DNA of 64,000 nucleotides from Candidatus Nomurabacteria bacterium (GCA_020632155.1 JACKGE010000001.1:92011-156010); one strand, 5' to 3'. Counted from the stretch's first letter, positions 6,138-54,778 are shown. Numbers and translations are program-made. The notes: generated by a model not told the origin, from the sequence alone.

Positions 6138-6177
6138 GACAAAAAGCTCGAAGTAGATTTACTTCGAGCTTTTTGCT
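6138..6177. terminator. hairpin terminator after rplT (bidirectional-looking)
   Basis: AAAAAGCTCGAAGTA-GATT-TACTTCGAGCTTTTTGCTTTC. Confidence 0.7.
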
Positions 6178-17824: not shown

Positions 17825-17947
17825 TAACTCCTCCTATGCCTGGATGCGAAGAACGTTCGGCGAAACAATACAATATTTCCTCGAAAAATCAACAAAAAAC
17901 ACTCCTAAGGGAGTGTTTTTTGTTTTCTGGAAGTCGAAAGTAGAGAA

Positions 17948-22725: not shown

Positions 22726-22764
22726 TCTGTTACCTAGACAAAAGCCGCGCCCTATGGGCGCGGC
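22726..22764 (+). terminator. 18-bp perfect hairpin (TAGACAAAAGCCGCGCCC-TAT-GGGCGCGGCTTTTGTCTA)
   Basis: perfect inverted repeat after small + strand gene. Confidence 0.55.
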
Positions 22765-22796
22765 TTTTGTCTAGGCATAGTGATACGCTTACTAAT

Positions 22797-22833
22797 AATC
22801 AAAAAACCTGCGCAAGGCGCAGGTTTTTTGATT
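22797..22833. terminator. bidirectional terminator abutting the rplB stop codon (AATCAAAAAACCTGCGC-AAG-GCGCAGGTTTTTTGATT)
   Basis: 17-bp stem with A6/T6 flanks; would terminate rplC-rplB transcription before rpsS. Confidence 0.65.
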
Positions 22834-23695
22834 ATTTCTTCCTGTTCTGCATGAGCTTGCCGGGTTTGCGGCGAGACACGATGAACTTGTTTGAGTACTT
22901 CTTTGGTTTACGGGTCTTTTGACCTTTACCAGTCGGACGACCTTGTGCGGTGCGTGAACGCTTGTGACCACGAGGACTGCGTCCCTCACCACCTCCATGT
23001 GGGTGATCAACTGCGTTCTTGGCGCTACCACGTGTCTTCGGGCGAAGACCCATATGGCGAGCACGTCCCGCCTTACCGATGTTTACCAAACGGTGTTCCT
23101 CATTTGAGGCTTCACCAACTGTTGCCCAGCAAGTCGAGAGGATACGGCGCACCTCCGATGATGGGAGTTTGAGCTGCGTGTACCCACCGTCATGAGCTAC
23201 CACCTCGGCGTAGTTACCGGCGCTACGCGCAATGCGAGCTCCAGCACCCGGCTTTAGTTCAATAGCGTAGACAAAGGTACCTGCTGGTAGTTTACCAAGT
23301 GGCAAACGATTACCAAGCTTAGCCTTTGCTTTCTCCGAAACGGTGAAGGTATCACCTACCTTCATACGCTGTGGTGCTACGATGTAGCGACGCTCACCGT
23401 CTTTGTAGAGTACAAGGGCGATAAACGCGCTACGGTAGGGATCGTATTCGACAGATTCTACCTTCGCTGGAATATCCTTCTTATCGAACTTGAAGTCGAT
23501 CTCACGATACTTGCGCTTGTTGCCAGCACCACGATACCACGTAGTGGTACGACCTTGACTGTTACGACCACCGGTTGAACTCTTACCCTTTACAAGGGCC
23601 TTGTGTGGCTGGTTCTTAGAGCCTGAGAGTTTCTCTTTGTATGAGACAACGGTCATGCCACGACGACCAGCTGATGTTGGTTTGTATTTTTTCAT
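22832..23695 (-). CDS. rplB: 50S ribosomal protein L2
   Basis: 287 aa; ...GGGEGRSPRGHKRS... Confidence 0.93.
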   Translation of the reverse strand: MKKYKPTSAGRRGMTVVSYKEKLSGSKNQPHKALVKGKSSTGGRNSQGRTTTWYRGAGNKRKYREIDFKFDKKDIPAKVESVEYDPYRSAFIALVLYKDGERRYIVAPQRMKVGDTFTVSEKAKAKLGNRLPLGKLPAGTFVYAIELKPGAGARIARSAGNYAEVVAHDGGYTQLKLPSSEVRRILSTCWATVGEASNEEHRLVNIGKAGRARHMGLRPKTRGSAKNAVDHPHGGGEGRSPRGHKRSRTAQGRPTGKGQKTRKPKKYSNKFIVSRRKPGKLMQNRKK

Positions 23696-25889: not shown

Positions 25890-25895
25890 AAAATA

Positions 25896-25935
25896 AACCA
25901 AAACCCCGCGGCTGAAGCCGCGGGGTTTTGGTTTT
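25896..25935. terminator. bidirectional GC-rich terminator (AAACCCCGCGGC-TGAA-GCCGCGGGGTTTTGGTTTT) downstream of rpsJ
   Basis: 9-bp GC stem with A/T runs both sides; separates rpsJ from rplC. Confidence 0.65.
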
Positions 25936-29177: not shown

Positions 29178-29356
29178 TGATTACTGTTCGATATCTTCAT
29201 CGAACATTCCAAGACAGACAAAGTGTGCTCCCTCACGAAACAGTCCTCGGCGCTGGTGTTTGCTATCGTGAGTTTCCCTGCTCCAGCGGCGCACCAACGC
29301 CTGAAGCGAGATGAGGTCCGTTCTGTATCCATTAACAATGTGCCACGGAATTATGT

Positions 29357-29400
29357 AAAACGCAAAACTACATTACAAGTGTAATGTAGTTTTGCGTTTT
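29357..29400. terminator. perfect 20-bp hairpin AAAACGCAAAACTACATTAC-AAGT-GTAATGTAGTTTTGCGTTTT (bidirectional)
   Basis: perfect palindrome with A4/T4 flanks. Confidence 0.55.
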
Positions 29401-29464
29401 ACTACTTAAGTCCGACTTAGTAGCTTATTCCGCCTTCTTCTTACAGAAGCTGTTCAGGTTGTAT

Positions 29465-29500
29465 GACAGAACCCTGCAAGCAAGCTTGCAGGGTTCTGTC
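29465..29500 (-). terminator. perfect 16-bp hairpin GACAGAACCCTGCAAG-CAAG-CTTGCAGGGTTCTGTC downstream of fusA
   Basis: perfect palindrome 24 nt after fusA stop. Confidence 0.55.
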
Positions 29501-32614: not shown

Positions 32615-34672
32615 ATGAACAAAGATTTTGATGTAGTTGTCATTGGTGCCGGCTCCGGTGGTCTTACCGCCGCGATCGGTTTTGCCAAAGTGGGCAAACG
32701 CGTACTTCTTATTGAACGCGAACATATGGGCGGTGAGTGTACGAACTCCGGCTGCGTACCGAGTAAAGCCCTACTCCATTTTGCCAAAGAGCACTACGCC
32801 GGAAACCCGAAGTACGCCAAGCTGGGTGAGGCACTTCCCTACGTGCGCTCCAAGATAGAAGCTATCCGCGCCGAGGAAAGCGTAGACGAGCTTGAGAAAC
32901 ACGGTATTGCTACCGTTATGGGTGAAGCAAAATTTACTGCTCCTTGTGTCGTTGAGGTAAATGGGACTGCGTATCGTTTCAAAAAGGCCGTTATTGCAAC
33001 TGGTTCATCGCCACGCACAACAGAGATTGCTGGACTCAATACAGAAGATCTTCTCACCAACCAAACTATATTTGGGCTTACGGAATTACCAAAACGACTT
33101 CTTATCATCGGCAGTGGTCCTATTGGCCTAGAGATGGCCAATGCCTTTGCCCTCCTTGGAACTAAGGTCACCATTGCAACCATCGATACTACCCTCGCAC
33201 GCCTCGAAGAACCGGCGGTAGCTAAGTTGCTACAAGAACGTTTCAAGGAACTCGATATCGCCGTCATTTTGCGTGCATTTATCAATGAAGTACGCGGTCG
33301 CGAGGCGGTGATTGATATCAAAGACGGTGAGACGATAATCGGACAGGAAACAGCCGCGTTTGACAAAGTGCTTGTCGCCATTGGACGAGTACCCAATCTC
33401 CCTCAAGGACTCGAAGCGGCTGGTATTCAGTTTAACCAGCACGGTATCGAGGTTGATAGCCAGCACCGCACCAGCAATCGACATGTCTATGCAGTTGGTG
33501 ATGTAGCGCAACGTCTTAAGTTCACTCATACTGCCAACGACGTAGCGCGGCAGGTGGTCACCCACGTAGTAAGTCGCGGACTTCTGCGCTTTGATAGTGA
33601 CAAAGCGGTGCCGAAAGTAACCTACACCGAACCGGAAATGGCTCAGGTTGGACTATCGTACGCAGCAGCAGTGGAAAAATATTCAGAGGCGGAAGTGATG
33701 CGTATTGAGGTACCGTATGAAGATAGCGACCGCGCCAAGACTGACAACAATACAACGGGTGTAGTTATTGTAAGCGTGCGACGCCTTAGTGGTACCGTAC
33801 TCGGAGCTAGTATTGCCGGCCAGCACGCCGGTGAGCTCATTAGTATCTTTACACTGGCTATCGATCAAAAGTTATCACTCTGGCGCCTTCGCCGACTGAT
33901 TTTTGCCTACCCCACCTATGGCCTCCTGATAAAGAAGGCAGCGGATGTATTTTTTGCCGAGCAGCTGAGGAACCTCAAGGCTGATTTTCTCTTCCTGCTT
34001 AAAAAACACGCTCCCAAACTTATCGCTCTTACATTCTGGCTTGCACTCATTTACACCTTCCAGCACTATCGTATTTCACACCACCTTACCTACCGCGACA
34101 TGCTATTGTCGCTCTATGAGTTCTTCACCATGTCGATGTGGGGGCCACTTATCTATATTGTGCTCTACGCCTTGCGACCACTCATCCTCTTTCCAGCCAC
34201 CCTCCTGACCGCGCTTTCCGGTGCACTCTTTGGACTCTGGTGGGGCATTCTCTACACCGTAATTGGAGAAAACATGTCAGCGAACTTAGCCTACAGTATT
34301 GGTCGCTTCTTTGGTAAGGACCTTCGCCTTGAGGACACCTTTATGGGCCATTGGGTTGAGTGGCTACGAGCACGCCCGTTTGAGTCGGTACTATTTATGC
34401 GTCTCTTTTACGTACCATTTGACCTTGCCAACTATGGCTCTGGGGTACTTAAGGTATCGTGGCCTAGTTATGCTCTGGCAACGTTTGTCGGTATCATCCC
34501 CGGACTTACCACCTTTGTGGCGCTTGGCGCTGCCGTTGACGTCATGGAGCTACGGATGGAAGGACTTAGTTTCAACGCCTTTGATCCACGGTATCTGGCA
34601 CTTTCGGTAAGTCTGTTCGTGACCTCGGTGGTACTGTCGCGATATCTAAAACGCTGGAAAGCGACACAATAA
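32615..34672 (+). CDS. fusion: FAD-dependent pyridine nucleotide-disulfide oxidoreductase (mercuric reductase/dihydrolipoamide dehydrogenase-like) + C-terminal DedA/TVP38-TMEM64 membrane domain
   Basis: DVVVIGAGSGG, redox-active GGECTNSGCVPSK, NAD-binding GxGxxG; C-terminal ~230 aa polytopic DedA-like segment. Confidence 0.75.
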   Translation: MNKDFDVVVIGAGSGGLTAAIGFAKVGKRVLLIEREHMGGECTNSGCVPSKALLHFAKEHYAGNPKYAKLGEALPYVRSKIEAIRAEESVDELEKHGIATVMGEAKFTAPCVVEVNGTAYRFKKAVIATGSSPRTTEIAGLNTEDLLTNQTIFGLTELPKRLLIIGSGPIGLEMANAFALLGTKVTIATIDTTLARLEEPAVAKLLQERFKELDIAVILRAFINEVRGREAVIDIKDGETIIGQETAAFDKVLVAIGRVPNLPQGLEAAGIQFNQHGIEVDSQHRTSNRHVYAVGDVAQRLKFTHTANDVARQVVTHVVSRGLLRFDSDKAVPKVTYTEPEMAQVGLSYAAAVEKYSEAEVMRIEVPYEDSDRAKTDNNTTGVVIVSVRRLSGTVLGASIAGQHAGELISIFTLAIDQKLSLWRLRRLIFAYPTYGLLIKKAADVFFAEQLRNLKADFLFLLKKHAPKLIALTFWLALIYTFQHYRISHHLTYRDMLLSLYEFFTMSMWGPLIYIVLYALRPLILFPATLLTALSGALFGLWWGILYTVIGENMSANLAYSIGRFFGKDLRLEDTFMGHWVEWLRARPFESVLFMRLFYVPFDLANYGSGVLKVSWPSYALATFVGIIPGLTTFVALGAAVDVMELRMEGLSFNAFDPRYLALSVSLFVTSVVLSRYLKRWKATQ

Positions 34673-34702
34673 AAAAGTCCGAGCACTGCTCGGACTTTTT
34701 TA
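34671..34702. terminator. bidirectional terminator AAAAAAGTCCGAGC-ACT-GCTCGGACTTTTTT
   Basis: perfect 9-bp stem, A6/T6 flanks. Confidence 0.7.
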
Positions 34703-34913
34703 TAGTAGTGTCAGCCTTATTTCTTTTTAGCGGCCTTCTTCACTGCCTTCTTGGCAACTTTTTTCTTTTTGTCCATGATCGTTTGCATAGCTAGTAATGC
34801 ATGATCACCTGTAGTGTGGGGAAGTTACTCCTTGGCCCAAGGGCGCTTCATGTACCAAAATTATACAAGCAAGTTTCAAACTCCAGATACAAGCAGGTGT
34901 GAATACCACAACC

Positions 34914-42573: not shown

Positions 42574-43452
42574 CTACAAACCTTTGAGGCTCAATAACAA
42601 AATTCCTGTAGTTACGATAATAAGTCCAAGGGTATTTTTGAATGTAACTTTTTCTTTTAGGAAAGTTACTCCTAAAATAAATACAAAAATAGGAGTTACC
42701 GCAGTGAGAGGAGAAGCTACTGACGCCGGAAGTATTTCAAATGCTAGCCAAAGCATCAACACTGCTAATGTGCTAAGTAAACCTGAAAGAAAGGCATATT
42801 TATGTTCAGCAAAGCGAGAGAAAAATGTTTTTAATTGACGCAGACTTTGTTTTTGCATCCTCAGGAATACGATCCCAACAGGTACTTCCGCTATAGCTAG
42901 AGCAATGAGAAATGTTCCTGCAGATGTCTGGTCAATTATGTGTTTTCCTGCAACATCAGAAATTGAGACAGCAACCGCAGCCACTAATGGCCACACAATG
43001 AGGTGAAATTGCCAGTGTGCAATCCTATCTTTTACCCACTCACGTTTTGACGGAGAACTTACTATAAGAACTCCAACGACAACCAACCCGAGCGCAATCC
43101 ATGCCCAAAATAAAAGTCTTTCTTGCAAAAATAAATATGCAAAAAATATTGTAAATATTGGGTATGTAGAAAAAAGTACACCTGTAATGATGGTGTCACC
43201 ACGAGCAGTAGCGAAGAATACGAAAGCTTCTGACAAGATAGCGCTCAGTATGGCAATCGGTAGCACATATAGAACATCGCTCCATACTCCATTGGTAAAC
43301 ATTGCAAAAGGTATCCATATCAGGACACCTGTTAAAGCATTCATCATGAAAGCCATGCTTTCAGAAAAATCTTGTAGACTGCGTCGCATAAAAATATACG
43401 ACAATGCCTGAAGCAATGCTGTTAGTAGACCAAAAATGATACCAATCGACAT
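42574..43452 (-). CDS. EamA/DMT family transporter
   Basis: 292 aa, 10 TM, duplicated EamA halves. Confidence 0.8.
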   Translation of the reverse strand: MSIGIIFGLLTALLQALSYIFMRRSLQDFSESMAFMMNALTGVLIWIPFAMFTNGVWSDVLYVLPIAILSAILSEAFVFFATARGDTIITGVLFSTYPIFTIFFAYLFLQERLLFWAWIALGLVVVGVLIVSSPSKREWVKDRIAHWQFHLIVWPLVAAVAVSISDVAGKHIIDQTSAGTFLIALAIAEVPVGIVFLRMQKQSLRQLKTFFSRFAEHKYAFLSGLLSTLAVLMLWLAFEILPASVASPLTAVTPIFVFILGVTFLKEKVTFKNTLGLIIVTTGILLLSLKGL

Positions 43453-43518: not shown

Positions 43519-43560
43519 ACAAAACAAAACTGCTCCCAATTGGGAGCAGTTTTGTTTTTT
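43519..43560. terminator. bidirectional terminator AAAACAAAACTGCTCCC-AATT-GGGAGCAGTTTTGTTTT downstream of rpsG
   Basis: perfect 17-bp stem. Confidence 0.7.
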
Positions 43561-45048: not shown

Positions 45049-45687
45049 CTATAATCCGCGAAGACCTGTCAAGAGCTCAAAGACCGAGAATACCAACTGC
45101 GAGAATGGCGCCCAGAAGAGGTGGATGAAGATAAAAATAAAGGCAAAGGTGACAAAAAGACCGTACCGCTCAACCCACATGGTAAGTTCACGATACTTCT
45201 GGGCAGCACCAAACGGTAGCAAAGCGACAATGATTTTTGAGCCATCAAGCGGCGGAATCGGGATGAGGTTAAAAAAGGCCAAGAGGATATTGATATACAC
45301 AATGTAGGTAGCAATATCAAAAAAGGCTGCTGGTAGGCCGAGCGGCACCGCAAACCGTATCATCATTCCAAAAATAAAGGCGATTAGTAAATTTACCGCT
45401 GGGCCGGCAGCAGCCACCTTAGCCTCACCGTACTTTTGATCAGAGAGATTGTACGGGTTATACGGGACCGGCTTAGCCCAACCAAAGAGAATGCCGGCGC
45501 TTGAGACAAACAACAAGAGTGGGATGATGACCGAACCAAGCGGATCGATATGGACAAGTGGGTTAGCCGACAAGCGACCTTGGAGGCGCGCCGTCGGGTC
45601 GCCAAGCCAGTTGGCCATATATCCATGGGCCATTTCATGCAGAACAATTGATAGTATGAGGGCAGTGAGTATAAACAGTGATTCCAT
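45049..45687 (-). CDS. site-2 protease family (M50) membrane metalloprotease
   Basis: HEMAHGYMA HExxH in TM helix, 212 aa polytopic. Confidence 0.75.
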   Translation of the reverse strand: MESLFILTALILSIVLHEMAHGYMANWLGDPTARLQGRLSANPLVHIDPLGSVIIPLLLFVSSAGILFGWAKPVPYNPYNLSDQKYGEAKVAAAGPAVNLLIAFIFGMMIRFAVPLGLPAAFFDIATYIVYINILLAFFNLIPIPPLDGSKIIVALLPFGAAQKYRELTMWVERYGLFVTFAFIFIFIHLFWAPFSQLVFSVFELLTGLRGL

Positions 45688-45763
45688 AGCCCTCCATGGT
45701 ACGCGGCTTTGCTTGCATATTCAAGGCTTTGTGGTAGGATGTCGCCACTAAATATCTATTGAT

Positions 45764-46006
45764 ATGGCAAAGCAATGTGACATCACCGGCAAAAAGACCC
45801 AGATTGGGGGCCGCTACTCTAACCGCACGCGTGCGACGCAGTTTAACCCGTGTGGCAAGACTCGCCGCCAGCCAAACCTGCAGAAGCGACGTATCTATGT
45901 ACCAGAACTTGGCAAGCACGTGATTGTGAACGTTTCTACTAAAGGCCTTCGCACTATCGCCAAGAACGGTGCCTACAAAACCCTCAAGGCAGCCAAGCTT
46001 ATCTAA
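45764..46006 (+). CDS. rpmB: 50S ribosomal protein L28
   Basis: MAKQCDITGKKTQIGGRYSNRTRATQFNPCGKTRRQPNLQKRRIYVPELGK. Confidence 0.88.
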   Translation: MAKQCDITGKKTQIGGRYSNRTRATQFNPCGKTRRQPNLQKRRIYVPELGKHVIVNVSTKGLRTIAKNGAYKTLKAAKLI

Positions 46007-46017
46007 GCTAGGTAGAC

Positions 46018-46052
46018 ACAAAAAGGCCAGTGCGTAGCGCTGGCCTTTTTGT
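46018..46052. terminator. terminator after rpmB (AAAAAGGCCAG-TGCGTAGCG-CTGGCCTTTTT)
   Basis: 6-9-bp stem, A5/T5 flanks. Confidence 0.65.
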
Positions 46053-46087
46053 GTATTCTTGTTTTGCCAGTGAATTACACGCAAACG

Positions 46088-46131
46088 CAGACCTATTAAT
46101 ACTGCGATTAATCGCAGTATTAATAGGTCTG
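46088..46131. repeat. perfect 44-bp palindrome CAGACCTATTAATACTGCGATTAATCGCAGTATTAATAGGTCTG
   Basis: self-reverse-complementary over all 44 nt; between rpmB and comEC C-terminal gene. Confidence 0.8.
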
Positions 46132-46132
46132 A

Positions 46133-47029
46133 TTATTCTAACTGGAGTGTAGTGCCATCACTCACAAAAATAATAGTCCCTTCCTCAGCTGTACTTAGTA
46201 CTTGCACCCGCTTATTAAAGAGTAGATCGGTCACTTCCATATGTGGGTGTCCATAAGAATTATCTTTGCCGGCTGAGATGATAGCGTACGTTGGCATGAC
46301 CTCATCAAGGAATAATTCCGAGGTCGAGGTGCGTGAACCATGGTGACCGACCTTAAGTACATCACTCTTAAGGTGTTCCCCTTCTGTTAAAACCAAATAC
46401 TCCTCGATACTTTTGGGAGAGTCTCCGGTAAGTAAAAATGATGTTTCACCGTAAGTAAGCTGCGCTACAATCGAGGCGGTATTACTTTCCGCCTCTGACA
46501 TATCACGGTCTGGAAAAAGTATCTCCACTGATGCGCCACCGCCAAGGTCAATTACCTGCCCGCGGCGAGCGTAGGTGACCTTGCTCCCCTCAGCTGCTAT
46601 TGCCTCGCTGACCGTCTGCCAGACCGGTGTATCACTCTCGTTTTCGGTGCGGATAACCGCGCTCACGTCGTACTGCTTGAACACCTCCGGAAAGCCGCCA
46701 ACATGGTCGGCGTCCGGATGTGTTAACAGTGCGTAGTCAAGTGCTCTATCTTTGCGATCCATAACGGCCGAAAGTTCGCGCAGTACTTGGCTATCGCGAC
46801 CACTATCAATGAGCATCTGTCCACCAGCCGGCGACTGGATAAAAATTGAATCTCCCTGTCCCACGTCTAAGAACGCCACACACAGTTGCTCACTGGGGCA
46901 ACGCGGAGCACTCACTACTTGCCCCAATAAGGTATCCGGATCGAGTCCAAGCTCCGGTAGCCAAACCGTAAGTAATCCCACCAGAAGCGCCCCTATAACA
47001 GCCAAGCGTTTTTGCACGAGTGCGTCCAT
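46133..47029 (-). CDS. ComEC C-terminal metallo-beta-lactamase domain protein (separate gene, N-terminal anchor)
   Basis: DVGQGDSIFIQSP...LLTHPDADHVGG...VGHHGSRTSTS...YGHPH. Confidence 0.75.
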   Translation of the reverse strand: MDALVQKRLAVIGALLVGLLTVWLPELGLDPDTLLGQVVSAPRCPSEQLCVAFLDVGQGDSIFIQSPAGGQMLIDSGRDSQVLRELSAVMDRKDRALDYALLTHPDADHVGGFPEVFKQYDVSAVIRTENESDTPVWQTVSEAIAAEGSKVTYARRGQVIDLGGGASVEILFPDRDMSEAESNTASIVAQLTYGETSFLLTGDSPKSIEEYLVLTEGEHLKSDVLKVGHHGSRTSTSELFLDEVMPTYAIISAGKDNSYGHPHMEVTDLLFNKRVQVLSTAEEGTIIFVSDGTTLQLE

Positions 47030-47082
47030 ACTTTCGTTTCATGATACAATCCGAAGACCTTATTGGCTAACCGACAGTAACT

Positions 47083-47643
47083 ATGCAATACGAAGCAAAG
47101 ACCTTTACCATTCCGGCACTTGATGGCATTTCCCAGCAGTCAATTGATGAGCATCTCAAGCTATACGCCGGTTATGTTAAACACGTAAACCACATTCGCG
47201 AAGAACTGAAAGACGTAAACGATCCCTATGCGCGCTCAGAGATGCAGCGCCGTCTTGGGTTTGAGTTTGGTGGTATGAAAAACCATGAGTACTACTTCGC
47301 GCAGTTTGAAGGGGGCGCAACAGCGGTGCCTGATGGTGATTTTAAAAGTATGGTCGAGGCAGAGTGGAGCTCAATGGAAGCATTTGTTGAGCACATGAAA
47401 GAGGTAGCAGCAACCCGAGGCGTCGGTTGGGCCATGTGTTACATCGACCGCGCTGAGAAAAAACTGGTCACCGCCTGGATCGATGAACAACACCTTGGCC
47501 AATTAGCCGACCTCGATATCGTTCTCGGTATCGACATGTGGGAGCACTCATACATGCTTGATTACCCGCCAAGTGAGAAGAAGGCCTACATTGACGCAGT
47601 CTTCAAAAACCTGAACTGGGAAGTGGTAGCGAACCGCGTCTAA
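47083..47643 (+). CDS. sodA: Fe/Mn superoxide dismutase
   Basis: 186 aa; DMWEHSYM and metal ligands. Confidence 0.92.
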   Translation: MQYEAKTFTIPALDGISQQSIDEHLKLYAGYVKHVNHIREELKDVNDPYARSEMQRRLGFEFGGMKNHEYYFAQFEGGATAVPDGDFKSMVEAEWSSMEAFVEHMKEVAATRGVGWAMCYIDRAEKKLVTAWIDEQHLGQLADLDIVLGIDMWEHSYMLDYPPSEKKAYIDAVFKNLNWEVVANRV

Positions 47644-47661
47644 GCCTAAGAAAATAATATG

Positions 47662-47692
47662 AGCCCGCCGGAATGCTGTGCCGGCGGGCTTT
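47662..47692 (+). terminator. hairpin AGCCCGCCGG-AATGCTGTG-CCGGCGGGCT after sodA
   Basis: 10-bp GC stem, weak T tail. Confidence 0.5.
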
Positions 47693-47700
47693 GTAGCAAA

Positions 47701-47793
47701 TCATCGGAGCAAAATGATCATAGCCAGTACGATCAACATGACACCAATAGCGATTGCGCGACACACTGGTCGCGAAGAAAGGATTATGTCCAT
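47701..47793 (-). CDS. 30-aa hydrophobic peptide MDIILSSRPVCRAIAIGVMLIVLAMIILLR
   Basis: GGGAGG SD 5 nt before ATG; single TM; too short for ORF track. Confidence 0.3.
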   Translation of the reverse strand: MDIILSSRPVCRAIAIGVMLIVLAMIILLR

Positions 47794-47875
47794 TCTTTCC
47801 TCCCTACGTTTGTATAAATTGTACCGTGCCCTGCTACTCATTCAGCAATACACCAGCAAATAAAATAGTGTCAAC

Positions 47876-49438
47876 TTAGCGAAAAAATATGGGTGTTGCA
47901 GCCAGTGTTTCCGATTGCGGTACACTGGTCTTTGTTTCACTCTGCGCCTCGACCTCTTCAATTGTCCAATAAGCTAACGGATCAAGCGAAGTGCGTTCCA
48001 GTTTGTACCACGCCAGCGCTACCAGCAGATACCCGAGAGGTACCAATACAAACGGAAAAGCTGGTACCACAAAGGCGGCAAAGGATAAGCTGCCAAAATA
48101 CTGAGCCGCCGTGATGATGTACCAGAGCGACAGTTGCGCTGCCAAGCCAAGTACAGCAGCAGCGCTCGGAAACACAAGACCAACAAGCCCCGTACTAAAG
48201 GTGAGTAGCATCGAGAGTGGTACCATCGGCAGCACCAACACATTAACCAAGACCGCCAAGACCGAAAACTGTCCGATCTGGTAGAGCAGCAGTGGTGACA
48301 CGGCAATTTGCGCCGCAATCGTTGCGGTGAGAAAACCGCGCGCACCAAACCAACGTGGTACGGCGCTCAGCCGCTTTTCAATAGCGGGAGCCAAAAGAAT
48401 CAGGCCAAGGGTTGCTAAGAACGAGAGCTGGAAGCCAATATCATAAACTAGCAAGTACGGTTGCCACAACAGCATAAGCACGCCGGCTAGAAAGAGTGCC
48501 CTTGTTACTAGGTACACACGGCCGGTTGCCTGCGCAAGGAGTAAGAGACCGGCCATCAAACTAGCGCGCAGGACAGTAGCGGAAAGTCCTACGATGATAG
48601 CAAAGGCAGCGATAGCAACAAGACCAAATACAACTCTACCGCGCAGTGGCAAAAAGAATGAAAACAAAAACATGATAAACGTCACCACCAACATGACGTT
48701 GTAGCCCGACAGCACCACAATATGAATAATGCCGGTACGGCGAAACATCTCTTCAAGTTCGTCACCGAGCGCCCGCTTCTCGCCGAGGAGTAGCCCTAAT
48801 CCAAGCGCCGCTTCGGGAGCGGGGATGTACCGCTCAATTGAATCCGATAAAAGGTTTTTTACATCATAGAGTCGCGCAATTGATAGCACATTGTCAGTAG
48901 TCGATAGAATTTTCACGTCAGCAAAAGACAGAACCTGAGTGACGCCCCGCGCTTTAAGATAGCCCGCGTAATCAAAGACACGACCAAACTCAGTCTCGAA
49001 GGCTTCCGGCTGTTCTAATTGGCCGGTAGCCGACACACGGTCGCCATAGTGGTACTGCTCGTACGGTTCGGTACGTACCAGTACCAGCGCAGACTCCGTT
49101 TTGACGTAGAGCTGTGTCATGCTCTCGCGTTCGTCCGGTTCACGTGCGACTGTTCCTTCTATGGTGACGGCTCTGCCGCTTTGTGCCTCTAGGGCTGGGG
49201 TACGTAAGTGCTCTGCTTCTGCGTCCGTGCGCAAAAGGCCAATAACGGCACCGAACAAGAAAACCGTTACCAGCAAGAGACTCTGTTCCCGCGAGCGCCG
49301 ATAGACCAGTGCCGCAATAAGAGCCAGCAAAGCCACATATAAGATGGTCGGTAAGCTAACTGGCCAGAGGGTGTAGGTTCCAATACCACAAACAAAACCA
49401 CCAATCGCTGCGTACAGTACTACTGGAGAATGCCTCAT
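47876..49438 (-). CDS. comEC: ComEC/Rec2 competence channel protein (DUF4131 + Competence domain; lacks MBL domain)
   Basis: ...RRTGIIHIVVLSGYNVMLVVTF... polytopic. Confidence 0.8.
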   Translation of the reverse strand: MRHSPVVLYAAIGGFVCGIGTYTLWPVSLPTILYVALLALIAALVYRRSREQSLLLVTVFLFGAVIGLLRTDAEAEHLRTPALEAQSGRAVTIEGTVAREPDERESMTQLYVKTESALVLVRTEPYEQYHYGDRVSATGQLEQPEAFETEFGRVFDYAGYLKARGVTQVLSFADVKILSTTDNVLSIARLYDVKNLLSDSIERYIPAPEAALGLGLLLGEKRALGDELEEMFRRTGIIHIVVLSGYNVMLVVTFIMFLFSFFLPLRGRVVFGLVAIAAFAIIVGLSATVLRASLMAGLLLLAQATGRVYLVTRALFLAGVLMLLWQPYLLVYDIGFQLSFLATLGLILLAPAIEKRLSAVPRWFGARGFLTATIAAQIAVSPLLLYQIGQFSVLAVLVNVLVLPMVPLSMLLTFSTGLVGLVFPSAAAVLGLAAQLSLWYIITAAQYFGSLSFAAFVVPAFPFVLVPLGYLLVALAWYKLERTSLDPLAYWTIEEVEAQSETKTSVPQSETLAATPIFFR

Positions 49439-49820
49439 TAAAAAATTGTAACAAAAATACCGCCTGTAAAAGGCGGCTTGTTCGGGGCCGGCGCGTTAGC
49501 GCCGGCCCGACGTTTCAGTGTATTCGACGTGCCACACCCCACTGGCGCTGACGTGCATACTCGATAGCTGCCGGATCACCTGCCAAAACGCGACGAGCAA
49601 TCTCGGTACGGATGGCACATTTGTCTTTTTTCATCTGCACCACCAAATGGCAACAATGATCAGGCGCCGCGCCGATCTCAACATCGAGACTCAGGTGGCG
49701 CGCGGCCAATGTAGCCGTGTTTTGTTCGTCGACGGACAATGCGTTTCTCCCTCTTTTGTCCAGCCACCAATGGCTAGACTTCAACGGACAAGCCTACCGC
49801 TAGGATTAGAAAAAAGCAAG

Positions 49821-50240
49821 TTACGCGTTATCCATCGCTTCATTAGCCAAACGATCGGCTTCTTTATTTTGCTCGCGGCGCACATGGGTAAGCGTCAAGT
49901 TTGGAAAGTTTGCTACCCGTAAATTATGTATCTCGATAAACAGTGGTACGAGCCCTGGTTCTTTTATCTGGTATTCACCATTTAGTTGTTTTTTTACCAG
50001 TTCACTATCCATGCGCAGTTCAAAAGCCATCTCTTTGGTCTTTTTACCGAAGTGGCTTTTAAGAGTTGAAAGGGCTGTGGCCACGGCTAGGTACTCAGCA
50101 AAATTGTTAGTGGCGTTACCAATGAATTCCGATACTTCTTTGATGACGTCACCTTGCTCATTCACAATCTGAATACCGACACCAGCTGGTCCGGGGTTTC
50201 CACGCGCACCTCCGTCTGTATACGCAATAATTTTTTCCAT
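49821..50240 (-). CDS. rnhA: ribonuclease HI
   Basis: MEKIIAYTDGGARGNPGPAG...NNFAEYLAV...; ORF begins with TTG one codon earlier, ATG at 50238-50240. Confidence 0.9.
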   Translation of the reverse strand: MEKIIAYTDGGARGNPGPAGVGIQIVNEQGDVIKEVSEFIGNATNNFAEYLAVATALSTLKSHFGKKTKEMAFELRMDSELVKKQLNGEYQIKEPGLVPLFIEIHNLRVANFPNLTLTHVRREQNKEADRLANEAMDNA

Positions 50241-50258
50241 CAACTCAATAATAACACA

Positions 50259-50294
50259 CCCCTATATACTCCAGTTAACTGGAGTATATAGGGG
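50259..50294. repeat. perfect 36-bp palindrome CCCCTATATACTCCAGTTAACTGGAGTATATAGGGG (copy 1 of duplicated core)
   Basis: abuts stop of YerC-like gene and lies 18 nt upstream of rnhA ATG. Confidence 0.8.
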
Positions 50295-50696
50295 TTACTT
50301 TAGTGCCCGCTTCCATCGTCCTTTACCCATTGGCGGCATACCTCCCTGCAAAACAGTTTCAAGTGTCTTGAGAAATGCCTCACGATCAAATTTCTTTGAA
50401 CTGACCAATTTCAGTATTGCCGCAAAGTGTCCTTCATCGTATTTGAGAGCATAGTCACTGGCAGTTGTCTCACTCAACTTGAGTGTTTGCGATATTCTAT
50501 ATCGGGAATAACCTTTATCTAACATTACGATGGTCGCCAACCGTTTCATGTACATTACTCGTTCCGACTCAGTAAATAATTCATTAAAAAGTTCTCCAGC
50601 TGTTTTGCTGTTACAAACCGCAAAGAGATCAGTGAGTTGCTTTTGCAGTTGTTGTATGTGAGCTGACTTGAGTTCTTGTTTTGAAACGTTGGTCAT
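50295..50696 (-). CDS. TrpR-like YerC/YecD family DNA-binding protein
   Basis: ...ERVMYMKRLATIVMLDKGYSRYRISQTLKLSETTASDYALKY... resembles the YerC HTH. Confidence 0.6.
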   Translation of the reverse strand: MTNVSKQELKSAHIQQLQKQLTDLFAVCNSKTAGELFNELFTESERVMYMKRLATIVMLDKGYSRYRISQTLKLSETTASDYALKYDEGHFAAILKLVSSKKFDREAFLKTLETVLQGGMPPMGKGRWKRALK

Positions 50697-50722
50697 AATA
50701 CTCCAGTTAACTGGAGTATTAT
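50695..50722. repeat. perfect 28-bp palindrome ATAATACTCCAGTTAACTGGAGTATTAT (copy 2), overlapping ATG and SD of YerC-like gene
   Basis: shares 22-bp core ATACTCCAGTTAACTGGAGTAT with 50259-50294. Confidence 0.8.
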
Positions 50723-50734
50723 AGCATGTTGTTG

Positions 50735-52429
50735 TTAGAGATTCCGCAGGACATCAACGATACGCAGGCGCACCTGATGCCGATTCATGAAGTACGACTC
50801 TTCAACATGCGCGAGAATAGTAATCGGCTCACCTACTTTTGGCTGGTATGAGAATGCATTAGGGGTTTTAAAGAAGGCGATGGCTTCCAGTCGATCACGC
50901 AGGCGCGGCAGAACGAGTTTGACGTGTTCTTTAGTCTTACCAAACATAGCCACTTCTGCAGGCACAACATCCACAAAAGCAAACAGTGGTTTCTCGTTAC
51001 CAACCCCAAACGGTGCGAGCTCTTTAAGGGTAGTGAGCAGTTCGGGACCAATTGCATCAAGTGAAAGTGCTGCATCGACTACAACCTCTTCATCATACTG
51101 CGCCTCATTACCAAGTTCAGCAAAGGCAGCATTCAGTCTCTGCGGCAACGAAAACAGTTGCTCCTCATGTACCGAAAAGCCACCCGACATGTGGTGTCCG
51201 CCATGTTCAATAAATGAATCCCCGACTGTGTCCATGAGCGTGATGACACTGGTTTTGCCTTCGCTCCGGCACGAACCTTTAATGACACCATTACCATCGC
51301 GGCCCCAGAGAAAAACTGGTCGGCCAAACTCACCAGCAAGACTGCTGGCACTGAGGCCAACGAGTGACGGTCGCCACGCGGGATTACCAAGGACAATGAC
51401 TGACGGCAACTCACTCATACCGTCAACACGCTTTTTAAGTTCCTTGGTCATCGCCGCTACTAAGCCTTTGCGCTCACTATTGAGTCGCTCAAGATGTTCG
51501 ACACGACCACCGGCTTCAGTCTCATCGTTTGTAGCCAGCATACGGAAGGCATCTTCGGGGTCATCCATGCGCGAAGCGGCGTTGATGCGCGGTCCCAAGG
51601 TAAAACCGACATCGTCTTCAGTGAGGCGGCGCTGATCAAGTCGATTCTTGCGAAGTAACTGATGAAGTCCGGGGCGACGCGATTTCCGTAGCACCTCAAG
51701 ACCGTAACGCGCGAACACGCGGTTCTCTCCCACGAGTGGCACCATATCCGCTACTGTTGCTACACCTACCATGTCGAGCCACCACTTCTCGAAACCGGAG
51801 GTGAGCTTAAACTCACCGCGCTCAAGGAGCGCCTCAATGAGCTTATAAACCACACCTGCACCACACAGCTCCTTGAACGGATACGTATCCCCTATTTTTG
51901 GATTTACCACAGCTACCGCAGGCGGTAGCTCTTCTTTTGGTTCGTGGTGATCGGTAATAATGACATCGATACCAAACTCGCTCGCACGGGCCACTGCTTC
52001 TATATCTGAAGTGCCGCAATCTATAGTAATGATGAGTTTGGTACCGGACGCAGCTAGTTTTTCGACAGCTTCAGTACTGAGACCAAACCCTTCATAGTGA
52101 CGGTGCGGGATGTAGTTATCAAAGTTGGTGAACAAAATGGCCTGAAAGAAATCGTGTAGCACCACAGCCCCAGGGATACCGTCACAGTCATAATCGGAAA
52201 ATATAGTTATTTTTTCTCCGTCCTTAATCGCTTGCAGTATGCGCGCCGTGGCCAGCTCCATGTTATGTAGGAGAAATGGGTCATGGCGATCAGTGTCGTA
52301 ATTGGGTGATAAAAAACGCTGCTGCTCGGCAGGAGTGGTGTGGCCACGGTGGTGGAGGAGTTTTTTCTTAAGGTCACTCGTATCAGGTAGCTCGTCGGCC
52401 AGTCGGTACTGAGGCATATTGAGATACAT
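50735..52429 (-). CDS. recJ: single-stranded-DNA-specific exonuclease RecJ
   Basis: 564 aa; DHH (DYDCDG...ITDHH) and DHHA1 domains. Confidence 0.9.
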   Translation of the reverse strand: MYLNMPQYRLADELPDTSDLKKKLLHHRGHTTPAEQQRFLSPNYDTDRHDPFLLHNMELATARILQAIKDGEKITIFSDYDCDGIPGAVVLHDFFQAILFTNFDNYIPHRHYEGFGLSTEAVEKLAASGTKLIITIDCGTSDIEAVARASEFGIDVIITDHHEPKEELPPAVAVVNPKIGDTYPFKELCGAGVVYKLIEALLERGEFKLTSGFEKWWLDMVGVATVADMVPLVGENRVFARYGLEVLRKSRRPGLHQLLRKNRLDQRRLTEDDVGFTLGPRINAASRMDDPEDAFRMLATNDETEAGGRVEHLERLNSERKGLVAAMTKELKKRVDGMSELPSVIVLGNPAWRPSLVGLSASSLAGEFGRPVFLWGRDGNGVIKGSCRSEGKTSVITLMDTVGDSFIEHGGHHMSGGFSVHEEQLFSLPQRLNAAFAELGNEAQYDEEVVVDAALSLDAIGPELLTTLKELAPFGVGNEKPLFAFVDVVPAEVAMFGKTKEHVKLVLPRLRDRLEAIAFFKTPNAFSYQPKVGEPITILAHVEESYFMNRHQVRLRIVDVLRNL

Positions 52430-52870: not shown

Positions 52871-54009
52871 TTGCTGCGAGCGAGTACTGCCTCGATAGCC
52901 GGCAAGGTACCGGTCTCGAGAAAGGTAAGCATAGCGCCACCGGCAGTCGACATAAAACTAAAGTGCTCCTCGATACCAAGTCCCTCCACGGCAGCAATAG
53001 TGTCGCCGCCGCCAATAATGGAATAGGCACCTGAAGCAGCAATGGCGCGTGCCAATGCTTCGGTTTGCTCAGCAAAGCCGTGTTCAAAATTCCCTAACGG
53101 ACCATTCCATAAAATGGTTCTGGCACTCGAAATTACCGGTAACAGGTCTTCAATACTTTGCGGACCAGCATCGAGAATAGATTCTCCTTCTGTTACTTCA
53201 GTAGCGGCTACCGTACGTCTCCCTTGTGGCCCATCGACCACCACATCAGCTGGAACGACGATGTTCTCTTTAGTGAGAATAGCTTCACTACGAAGGTCAA
53301 TATCTGACACAAGTGAGGTTCCCACGTTGTAACCACGCGCTTTGTAGACATCGTTAGCAAGCGCCCCACCGATAAGCACGGTGTCGTACTGCTTTGCATA
53401 CTTAGCTACCAACGGAAGCTTGGTCTCAAATTTAGCTCCGCCGAGAATGAACAGTGCTGGATGCTGTGGCTCCATGGCTTTGCTCAGCTCCTCGTATTCA
53501 TGCAAAAAATTAAAACCAAAATAGCTGGGAAGGAATTGTGGTATGCCTGTGAGCGACGCGTGCGAGCGGTGAGAGGCAGCGAACGCATCATTTACATACA
53601 GGTCAGCCACTGACGCTAGTTCCTTTGCCAAACTATCGTCACCAGCCTTTTCGCGAGGGTCTTGCCGCACGTTTTCAAGGAGGAGCACCTCACCTTCTTG
53701 TAATGAATGAACCGCCGCTTGAACCGCTTCGCCAGTTACTGACGGACACCATTTTGCTCCTACTGCTCGCTCCAGTTCAACATGGACCGGCTGCAGGGTT
53801 TCTTCCGGCTCACGACCAATATGTCCAATAACCACCACCTTCGCTCCCTGCTCGCGAAGATAGTTGATAGTAAGGAGCGCTCGTTTGATACGAAATGCGT
53901 TGGTGACTGTGCCACCCTTGACCGGTACATTAAGTGACGCCCGTAGCAATACTGTTTTGCCCGAAAGCGCAGCGACATCTCTGATACTAGGAAGGGTTGT
54001 TTTTGACAT
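52867..54009 (-). CDS. pgk: phosphoglycerate kinase
   Basis: canonical PGK; start at second Met (ORF to 54021). Confidence 0.92.
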   Translation of the reverse strand: MSKTTLPSIRDVAALSGKTVLLRASLNVPVKGGTVTNAFRIKRALLTINYLREQGAKVVVIGHIGREPEETLQPVHVELERAVGAKWCPSVTGEAVQAAVHSLQEGEVLLLENVRQDPREKAGDDSLAKELASVADLYVNDAFAASHRSHASLTGIPQFLPSYFGFNFLHEYEELSKAMEPQHPALFILGGAKFETKLPLVAKYAKQYDTVLIGGALANDVYKARGYNVGTSLVSDIDLRSEAILTKENIVVPADVVVDGPQGRRTVAATEVTEGESILDAGPQSIEDLLPVISSARTILWNGPLGNFEHGFAEQTEALARAIAASGAYSIIGGGDTIAAVEGLGIEEHFSFMSTAGGAMLTFLETGTLPAIEAVLARSN

Positions 54010-54778
54010 ATCGCTCCCCAATCTTAACTATCTCAGTGAAATCTTTAGCTTTGAGACTAGCGCCACCAATCAAGAAACCGTCGACTTCGCCTTCCTGTAG
54101 TAGTGCTTCGGCATTTTGTGGTTTAACTGATCCTCCATATAGAATCCGTACTTTTTTAAGGGCACTGCGACCAAAACGGTCCATAAGAATCTTCTGTATA
54201 AAAAGGCGCATTTCGTGTGCATCCTCTGGTGTAGCAGTCTCGCCAGTACCGATCGCCCAAACTGGCTCGTAGGCAATAGTGAGGTACTTAAGCCACATTG
54301 GCTTCACGTCACGAAGAGCCGCGCGAAGCTGCGCCTCGACAACACCAAAGTAATTACCGTGCGCATCACGATGGGTCTCGCCAACACAAACTACAGCTAC
54401 CGCCTTACCCTTAAGGACCGTTTGTACATTCTTATATATCTCAAGGTCAGTCTCACCGGCTGCGCGTCGCTCCGAATGACCAATGATAATGTGACTAACA
54501 CCAACACTCTCGAGCATTGAAAGCGACACCTCACCAGTATGCGGTCCGGACTTTTCCGAGTGCACGTCTTGGGCGCCGAGGAGAATGCGCTGACTTGGCG
54601 TAATACGTTCCATTTCTGGTAAATACACCGTTGGAGGAGCTACCACCACCTCAACCTCTGACTTATGACGACCAATACCCTTGCGGATATCAAGCATTAA
54701 TTCCTTGGCACTGCCAATGGTTGGCGGGTTCATTTTCCAATTACCCATCACGAGGAGTTTTGGTGCTGTGTTACTCAT
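53987..54778 (-). CDS. tpiA: triosephosphate isomerase
   Basis: MSNTAPKLLVMGNWKMNPP...; catalytic residues present. Confidence 0.92.
   Translation of the reverse strand: MSNTAPKLLVMGNWKMNPPTIGSAKELMLDIRKGIGRHKSEVEVVVAPPTVYLPEMERITPSQRILLGAQDVHSEKSGPHTGEVSLSMLESVGVSHIIIGHSERRAAGETDLEIYKNVQTVLKGKAVAVVCVGETHRDAHGNYFGVVEAQLRAALRDVKPMWLKYLTIAYEPVWAIGTGETATPEDAHEMRLFIQKILMDRFGRSALKKVRILYGGSVKPQNAEALLQEGEVDGFLIGGASLKAKDFTEIVKIGERYVKNNPS

Follow-up and report, generated by a model that had tools for sequence, protein, structure and literature searches.

Palindromic putative operators on both sides of a TrpR-like regulator gene in Patescibacteria

Analysis of a 64,000-nucleotide stretch of DNA from Candidatus Nomurabacteria bacterium (the window, by which the whole stretch is meant) revealed that a small TrpR-like helix-turn-helix (HTH) gene is enclosed by two copies of one perfect palindrome (Table 1). 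These palindromes are most likely the operators of the encoded protein, through which it would repress its own gene and probably control the adjoining rnhA, while the downstream copy would probably act as a terminator hairpin too. To judge from sequence comparison, the ORF product belongs to a large, hitherto undescribed subfamily of TrpR-like DNA-binding proteins, whose members came from MAGs of CPR/Patescibacteria and from metagenome contigs without classification. The self-bracketing layout, the specificity rule of the N-terminal arm and the partial fusion of the sites with terminators set it apart from the TrpR-type systems known so far. Binding, repression, looping and termination, together with the existence and identity of any ligand, are what we infer.

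Table 1. Features of the locus in window coordinates; the minus-strand order is recJ, 28-bp palindrome, 133-aa TrpR-like ORF, 36-bp palindrome, rnhA (direct reading of 49800-51200 and ORF list).
Feature	Position	Strand	Basis
TrpR-like HTH gene, 133 aa	50295..50696	-	ORF list; Pfam PF01371
Stop codon TAA of the HTH ORF	50295-50297	-	
Start ATG of the HTH ORF	50696-50694	-	
Upstream palindrome (putative operator), 28 bp, perfect	50695..50722	.	
20-bp core TACTCCAGTTAACTGGAGTA of the upstream palindrome	50699-50718		
Downstream palindrome (putative operator), perfect	36 bp 50259-50294; 38 bp 50258-50295 per repeat finder		
20-bp core of the downstream palindrome, at the palindrome apex	50267-50286		
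Predicted extended -10 promoter TGCTATAAT of the HTH gene	50718..50726	-	direct reading
Predicted extended -10 promoter TGTTATTAT of rnhA	50248..50256	-	
rnhA (RNase H)	49821..50240	-	Pfam RNase_H, RVT_3
recJ, co-directional upstream neighbour	50735..52429	-	Pfam DHH, DHHA1, RecJ_OB

Both palindromes were confirmed by direct reading as an earlier sequence-only reading of the window had described them. The 36-bp palindrome abuts the stop codon of the HTH gene, with 18 nt separating its end from the rnhA ATG. The 28-bp palindrome, which has the same 22-bp core, lies 12 nt past the recJ stop codon and overlaps the ATG of the HTH gene, a GGAG, the predicted -10 element and the predicted transcription start. 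The putative operators are 432 bp apart. The 22-bp core ATACTCCAGTTAACTGGAGTAT occurs exactly twice in the 64 kb with three mismatches allowed; no match was obtained in 100 dinucleotide-preserving shuffles, and none is expected by chance. The start of rnhA was placed at the ATG at 50240 (the ORF list begins the gene at TTG 50243), and the resulting N-terminus MEKII is common to the window and the family loci L022, L023 and L088. A protein identical to that of the window was found on contigs of the Patescibacteria (CPR) MAG GCA_020428955.1 and of several metagenome assemblies with the same two palindromes, and three of the contigs carrying it end inside the downstream palindrome. Independent assemblies also break inside flanking palindromes (contig ends in L002, L005 and L007, contig starts in L098, L100 and L101). 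Repeated perfect palindromes are thus a point of assembly fragility, so family loci are probably under-represented in MAGs. The hexamer GTTAAC, an HpaI site, is seen five times in the whole window, where about 16 are expected from base composition, and two of the five are the putative operators.

A profile search returned 153 proteins of about 135 aa, and an exhaustive HMM search returned 1781 clusters (50% identity) at E of at most 1e-3 and 807 at E of at most 1e-10. A metagenome locus scan, for which the profile was built on a 6-sequence alignment, a 52-sequence alignment being too diverse, supplied 40 further loci, and single look-ups added others; among 39 distinct members, the 36 with 60 bp or more of flanking sequence upstream and downstream were used for the bracket count. 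The first five relatives (36-55% identity) were all bracketed by GTTAAC-centred palindromes with arms of their own, and CTTACGGTTAACCGTAAG, TAGTACAGTTAACTGTACTA and TACTACGGTTAACCGTAGTA are examples of such palindromes of relatives. Perfect palindromes of at least 16 bp with an identical core on both flanks were present in 27 of the 36 distinct loci, and most of the remaining nine have a copy carrying one or two mismatches. The density of palindromes is 4.23 per kb within 250 bp of the gene and 0.064 per kb elsewhere in the same loci (a 66-fold difference). The core varies between lineages and is identical within a locus. Cognate cores amount to two to four copies within about 400 bp at the gene, while the remaining ~20 kb of each locus yielded two further core matches only, one exact (L031) and one with two mismatches (L086).

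Gene order around the family is conserved within clades (tatD <-> HTH -> <- metG; ksgA <-> HTH -> <- uvrD; recJ -> HTH -> rnhA; dprA -> HTH -> topA), and the recJ - HTH - rnhA synteny of the window was seen in L022, L023, L047, L070 and L088. Since synteny is stable within clades while the cores differ, the protein and its sites have co-evolved in place. The spacing from upstream to downstream operator is about 432-484 bp across the family, and no common helical phase emerged when the spacings were worked out by hand. The perfect palindromes far exceed 20 bp, with 28-38 bp in the window and up to 54-56 bp in relatives; beyond 20 bp the symmetry is likewise perfect in the divergent promoter regions of L057 (38 bp) and L077 (54 bp). 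A simple dimer footprint does not explain the length beyond 20 bp, which may reflect template-switch perfection, contacts of the basic C-terminal tail, or cruciform formation. Template-switch perfection of quasi-palindromes is a known mutational mechanism.

The centre of the palindrome was found to co-vary with residue 3 of the protein. At all 29 loci with the centre GTTAAC, residue 3 is N (once Y), and at all 11 loci with the centre ATTAAT, ATCGAT or TTCGAA it is H or R; residue-3 switches occur in several separate clades of a neighbour-joining tree. L064 (H3, GATTAATC) is 75% identical to L057 (N3, GTTAAC), and L088 (H3, ATACTGCGATTAATCGCAGTAT), at 48% identity, is the positional orthologue of the window gene in the order recJ - HTH - rnhA. 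Asparagine occupies residue 3 in 112 of 204 family proteins, histidine in 69 and arginine in 20. The residue-3 codons lie outside the palindrome, which makes a trivial DNA-level coupling of the two unlikely. This residue belongs to an N-terminal arm, MTNVSK (window 50679-50696), which is near-invariant across the family alignments A1 and A2 except at residue 3, and conservation of the arm may also stem from translation constraints on leaderless mRNAs. The pattern amounts to a simple rule, N at residue 3 with G at +/-3 of the dyad and H or R with A or T at +/-3, and the site of each member can be read from the flanks of its own gene, which supplies hundreds of matched protein-operator pairs.

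The match of the protein to Pfam Trp_repressor (PF01371) is marginal (27.9 bits against a cut-off of 27), and a family profile searched against the PDB recovered the TrpR-like structures 3KOR, 3FRW and 3G1C at E 7e-5 to 1.4e-4. The AlphaFold model (pLDDT 83.7) is all-helical, with seven helices and a disordered basic tail, GGMPPMGKGRWKRALK. The top 18 PDB matches of this model in Foldseek are all TrpR or TrpR-like, with target-normalised TM of 0.55-0.76 and E above 0.3, the monomer of an intertwined dimer being a poor query. The protein of 133 aa and the family median of 136 aa lie outside the ~95-110 aa of the TrpR family, and the helix at 105-119 and the basic tail of the model are additions relative to TrpR. 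A scan of NCBIfam gave no curated YerC/YecD match, its sole return being a weak IS630 HTH (E 0.015), and profile scans of the protein gave weak similarities of the HTH_23, HTH_29 and IS630 types. Of the YerC/YecD (Trp-repressor-like) HTH region proposed from the sequence alone, the TrpR-like part was therefore borne out by Pfam and the profile matches and the YerC/YecD part was not, given the NCBIfam result; the protein belongs by these comparisons to the TrpR family in the broad sense, and a HisR/YerC-YecD orthologue was rejected on the lack of a curated match, the operator centre GTTAAC with TACTCCA arms, and the neighbours recJ and rnhA. A restriction-modification controller (C) protein was likewise rejected: the ORF list and domain scans contain no restriction-modification genes in the neighbourhood, and C-protein structures match weakly in Foldseek (query-normalised TM ~0.2).

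Across the family loci, the upstream copy always overlaps the predicted core promoter. In half of the loci (18 of 36), a TAnnnT hexamer has its end exactly 6 nt ahead of the ATG, where the background is about two per offset, which implies leaderless mRNAs from these predicted promoters. Three classes were distinguished by the distance of the palindrome. With 18-19 nt between its centre and the ATG, the right outer arm serves as the -10 hexamer and a TTGnnn element stands 17 nt upstream in 6 of 10 loci, so that the operator would form spacer plus -10. Where the distance is 29-31 nt, the palindrome covers the -35 region. In the class of the window (12-14 nt), an extended -10 element, ATGCTAYAAT, directly precedes the palindrome, which covers the predicted transcription start. 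The window element TGCTATAAT has five bases inside the palindrome, its predicted start is at ~50711, and the leader of about 15 nt contains the GGAG. ATGCTAYAAT or ATGATACAAT occurs at the equivalent place in L022, L024, L053 and L085, and in L023 ATGCTACAAT stands before an imperfect upstream copy farther from the ATG. The overlap of the palindrome with the GGAG Shine-Dalgarno was plain on direct reading of the window; as a trait shared with relatives it did not hold, the Shine-Dalgarno in the right arm not being conserved in L022, L024 and L053.

Elements of the form TGnTAnnnT precede many window genes, at 6-7 nt before the start in comEC (47876-49438), the triose-phosphate isomerase gene (53987-54778), the gene at 42574-43452 and rnhA. 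Extended -10 elements close before other starts in the window support the promoter model for this organism, and leaderless mRNAs appear to be common in the source genome. The analysis supplies a predicted CPR promoter architecture of leaderless mRNAs transcribed from extended -10 elements.

On the other side of the gene, TGTTATTAT stands 7 nt before the rnhA ATG, which implies a leaderless rnhA mRNA, and 21 nt from the palindrome centre. The TGnTAnnnT element before rnhA has this distance of exactly 21 nt between its start and the palindrome centre in L022, L023, L070 and L088 as well as in the window, so that the fixed spacing holds in five of six rnhA-linked loci, the exception being L047. 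This offset to the predicted -10 puts the operator centre near -35.5 of the rnhA promoter. Control of rnhA by the HTH protein is plausible from this arrangement, and rnhA is the likely co-regulated gene. However, a 3' copy persists at loci whose neighbouring gene is convergent (metG, uvrD). Control of a downstream gene therefore cannot be what this copy is for in general, and broader functions, for example termination, looping with the upstream site for repression, or a roadblock, have to be considered. The predicted RNA hairpin of the downstream palindrome has -30.6 kcal/mol (z -7.2) and that of the upstream palindrome -16.9 kcal/mol (z -5.8). A terminator scan flagged the downstream copy with the tail GTGTTATTAT; the tail GUGUUAUUAU is moderately U-rich at best. 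The downstream copy probably also terminates the HTH transcript as a hairpin, the predicted 3' end being just past 50258.

Taken as operators, the palindromes would work in the following way. A dimer would bind each 20-bp dyad TACTCCAGTTAACTGGAGTA, the helix-turn-helix reading the arms and the N-terminal arm (N3) reading the central G/C at +/-3. Bound over the extended -10 element and the transcription start, the protein would repress its own synthesis, and from the downstream copy, given its position near -35.5 of a leaderless rnhA promoter, the same protein would probably control rnhA. The downstream copy would in addition sit at the apex of a long terminator hairpin of the HTH transcript, and the two sites may cooperate by DNA looping. 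An autoregulatory circuit that possibly gates rnhA had been proposed in the sequence-only reading, and it is favoured by the conserved bracket, the residue-3 co-variation, the promoter overlap, the 21-nt rnhA spacing and the TrpR precedent.

The TrpR-family factors TrpR and HisR recognise palindromes of 20 bp, and autoregulation is frequent among them (PMC9413887). The motif given there for TrpR is TGTAcTnGTnnACnAgTACA, with the centre GTnnAC, and that for HisR (YerC) is cacTTTA-N6-TAAAgtg; an upstream site and autoregulation are seen for about half of the hisR genes (PMC9413887). The window core fits a TrpR-type operator, being a 20-bp palindrome with a GTnnAC centre over the predicted -10 and transcription start. 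In E. coli, the promoter-operator of trp contains ACTAGTTAACTAGT (100% identity upstream of trpL) and shares the 8-bp centre AGTTAACT with the window core. E. coli TrpR is a small all-helical HTH protein with a ~20-bp palindromic operator over the core promoter and an autoregulated gene; the present protein is likewise small, is predicted to be all-helical with a TrpR-like fold, and has a ~20-bp palindromic putative operator over its predicted core promoter. E. coli TrpR has 108 aa, whereas the present protein has 133 aa with an extra C-terminal helix, a basic tail and the invariant MTNVSK arm; the arm spacing of the operator is TACT-CCA-GTTAAC here and GTACT-A-GTTAAC in the trp operator; and here sites lie on both sides of the gene, without linkage to tryptophan genes. 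The neighbours of the HTH gene are DNA and RNA housekeeping genes. The HisR (YerC/YecD) proteins of Firmicutes are the closest solved relatives by sequence (3KOR, 3FRW, 3G1C) and bind 20-bp palindromes. However, neither the HisR motif nor a histidine-gene regulon was found here, and no 3' copy is described for hisR. The repression loops of lac (O1-O2), gal (OE-OI) and deo also have two or more identical operators a few hundred bp apart, one of them over the promoter, while here the second site lies beyond the stop codon and the whole gene would be enclosed.

In REP/RAYT systems, as here, the flanks of a single-copy gene carry its cognate palindrome, palindrome variants diversify along with the protein, and extragenic copies are scattered and form mixed tandem arrays. 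The differences are that the present protein is an HTH protein, with only TrpR/HTH matches found, in place of an HUH Y1 (IS200/IS605-like) transposase, that the copy number is lower by one to two orders of magnitude, and that the gene is syntenically stable. The tens to hundreds of copies typical of REP/RAYT are absent (two in 64 kb, one to five exact copies per MAG).

The distribution of the core was examined by a search of the 18-mer ACTCCAGTTAACTGGAGT in a species-representative genome collection, which found it in 22 stretches. Of these, 19 are in Patescibacteria-type MAGs, and the other three are labelled as an Acidimicrobiales MAG, a chromosome of Acetobacterium and a contig of Comamonas. 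Each genome has one to five exact copies, each with its own palindromic extension of 18-56 bp. The scattered copies are intergenic, mostly past stop codons or between convergent genes, the adjoining genes are functionally unrelated, and A- and T-tracts flank about a third of the copies. About 11 other CPR MAGs carry the same 18-mer, and the bracketed family gene adjoins it in two only (L031, L041). The possibility that the core is a generic repeat is partly borne out: it does occur at unrelated intergenic sites in those ~11 genomes, but at only one to five copies in each. Tandem arrays of two or three family-type palindromes occupy single intergenic regions in L032 (6805-6891) and L034 (2438-2488 and 3183-3275), with the centres GTTAAC, CATTCGAATG and GATTAATC and no family gene nearby. 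Two copies of the window 20-bp core, 193 bp apart, come after rnhA in L026 (309-1135), from a Kaiserbacteria MAG; a deleted family gene between them was rejected, as no remnant was found in any frame. The idea that L079 and L026, both of 9975 bp, are one contig was rejected because their sequences differ. A DNA-uptake-type signal, considered in view of the comEC and pilus genes nearby, was rejected on the low density of two copies per 64 kb.

The window itself has an orphan 44-bp perfect palindrome, CAGACCTATTAATACTGCGATTAATCGCAGTATTAATAGGTCTG (46088-46131), between two convergent genes, rpmB and one for an MBL-fold hydrolase. The 22-bp core of this orphan is identical to the bracketing site of the H3-type orthologue in L088 and to a site at L034 3252-3275, which implies that the genome of the window has a second specificity and perhaps another paralogue to go with it. 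P0273, the best candidate for that paralogue, was rejected because it comes from another organism, and no locus examined carries two family genes. An Rfam scan of 45500-51500 returned nothing at the two bracketing palindromes and only sub-threshold chance matches around 46088-46131. Taken together, the scattered copies, arrays and orphan suggest that a genome has several paralogues of distinct specificity and that the sites play a wider part. A bolder extension of this, to which we give a low probability, is that N3 proteins read GTTAAC and H3 or R3 proteins read ATTAAT or ATCGAT as insulated paralogues within each CPR genome, and that their palindromes, besides being autoregulatory operators, would in terminator apices and in mixed arrays at other intergenic sites be protein-addressable punctuation (regulated terminators, insulators, roadblocks), a REP/RAYT-like anatomy run by an HTH protein.

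Other explanations of the palindromes were weighed against the operator reading. They might be mainly RNA hairpins, the upstream one ending recJ or occluding the ribosome-binding site (RBS) and the downstream one ending the HTH transcript, with the shared core incidental. The strong folding of both, the terminator call on the downstream copy, the many other long perfect palindromes at gene ends in the window, and the A- and T-tracts beside about a third of the scattered cores are in line with this. However, it leaves unexplained why nearly every family member has a shared core on both flanks and why the core co-varies with residue 3; moreover, upstream copies lie in divergent promoter regions where a terminator is needless (L057, L077), the predicted leaderless classes have the upstream copy before the transcription start and hence untranscribed, and the Shine-Dalgarno in the arm is not conserved. 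We consider hairpins as the main function improbable. The hairpin alternative offered from the sequence alone thus survives in part, a terminator being plausible downstream, while RBS occlusion is unlikely as a general mechanism since half of the family is predicted to have leaderless mRNAs, which would not include the upstream palindrome.

A similarly improbable alternative is that the protein binds specific sites as an architectural factor or a roadblock, in the way of parS/ParB, Ter/RTP or matS/MatP; its sites would then mark gene boundaries and would be only autoregulatory at its own gene. Such a factor would fit the scattered copies, which lie mostly between convergent genes or past stops with no promoter there, and the retention of the 3' copy whatever the orientation of the downstream gene. 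There is also precedent for a gene adjoining its own site, as the rtp and tus genes adjoin, and are autoregulated by, one of their sites. Against this, the cognate sites are overwhelmingly concentrated at the gene itself, the perfect dyads are non-polar whereas Ter sites are polar, and no ParB-like or other partner domain was found.

A REP/RAYT-like or other mobile cassette with the scattered copies as its offspring is least probable of all and was rejected as the main reading because synteny is kept (tatD/metG, ksgA/uvrD, recJ/rnhA, dprA/topA) while the core changes in place, and although a cognate palindrome flanking the gene, the same core scattered intergenically in several CPR genomes, the mixed palindrome flavours of the L032 and L034 arrays and the weak HTH_23, HTH_29 and IS630-type similarities would suit it, the all-helical 133-aa protein has no catalytic domain, the copy number is low (at most five exact copies per MAG), the viral contigs searched contained neither a family relative nor a core copy, and a search for a defence or phage origin gave no match in PADLOC and only noise in PHROGs.

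As putative operators of a TrpR-like protein, the palindromes are of interest beyond this locus. CPR/Patescibacteria make up a large share of bacterial diversity, almost all of it uncultivated and with essentially uncharted regulation, and the locus offers a handle on it. The candidate circuit ties a small repressor to housekeeping genes, to rnhA here and to tatD, topA, metG and uvrD elsewhere, and identical putative operators that enclose a whole gene and are partly fused to terminator hairpins are an unusual layout.

Further palindromes were noted in the course of the analysis. An unrelated one, the conserved intergenic palindrome CCTGCCTGCCGGCAGGCAGG, is shared by four different CPR genomes (L028 3541-3564, L032 1385-1404, L036 1211-1234 and L037 2750-2771). 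The window has many long perfect inverted repeats of 34-48 nt, at 6140-6175, 17891-17924, 22733-22775, 22794-22836, 25895-25934, 29355-29402, 29465-29500, 34669-34703 and 43521-43558. Most of these repeats end in A- and T-tracts, so they probably act as terminators in both directions, and the source organism tolerates unusually long perfect hairpins.
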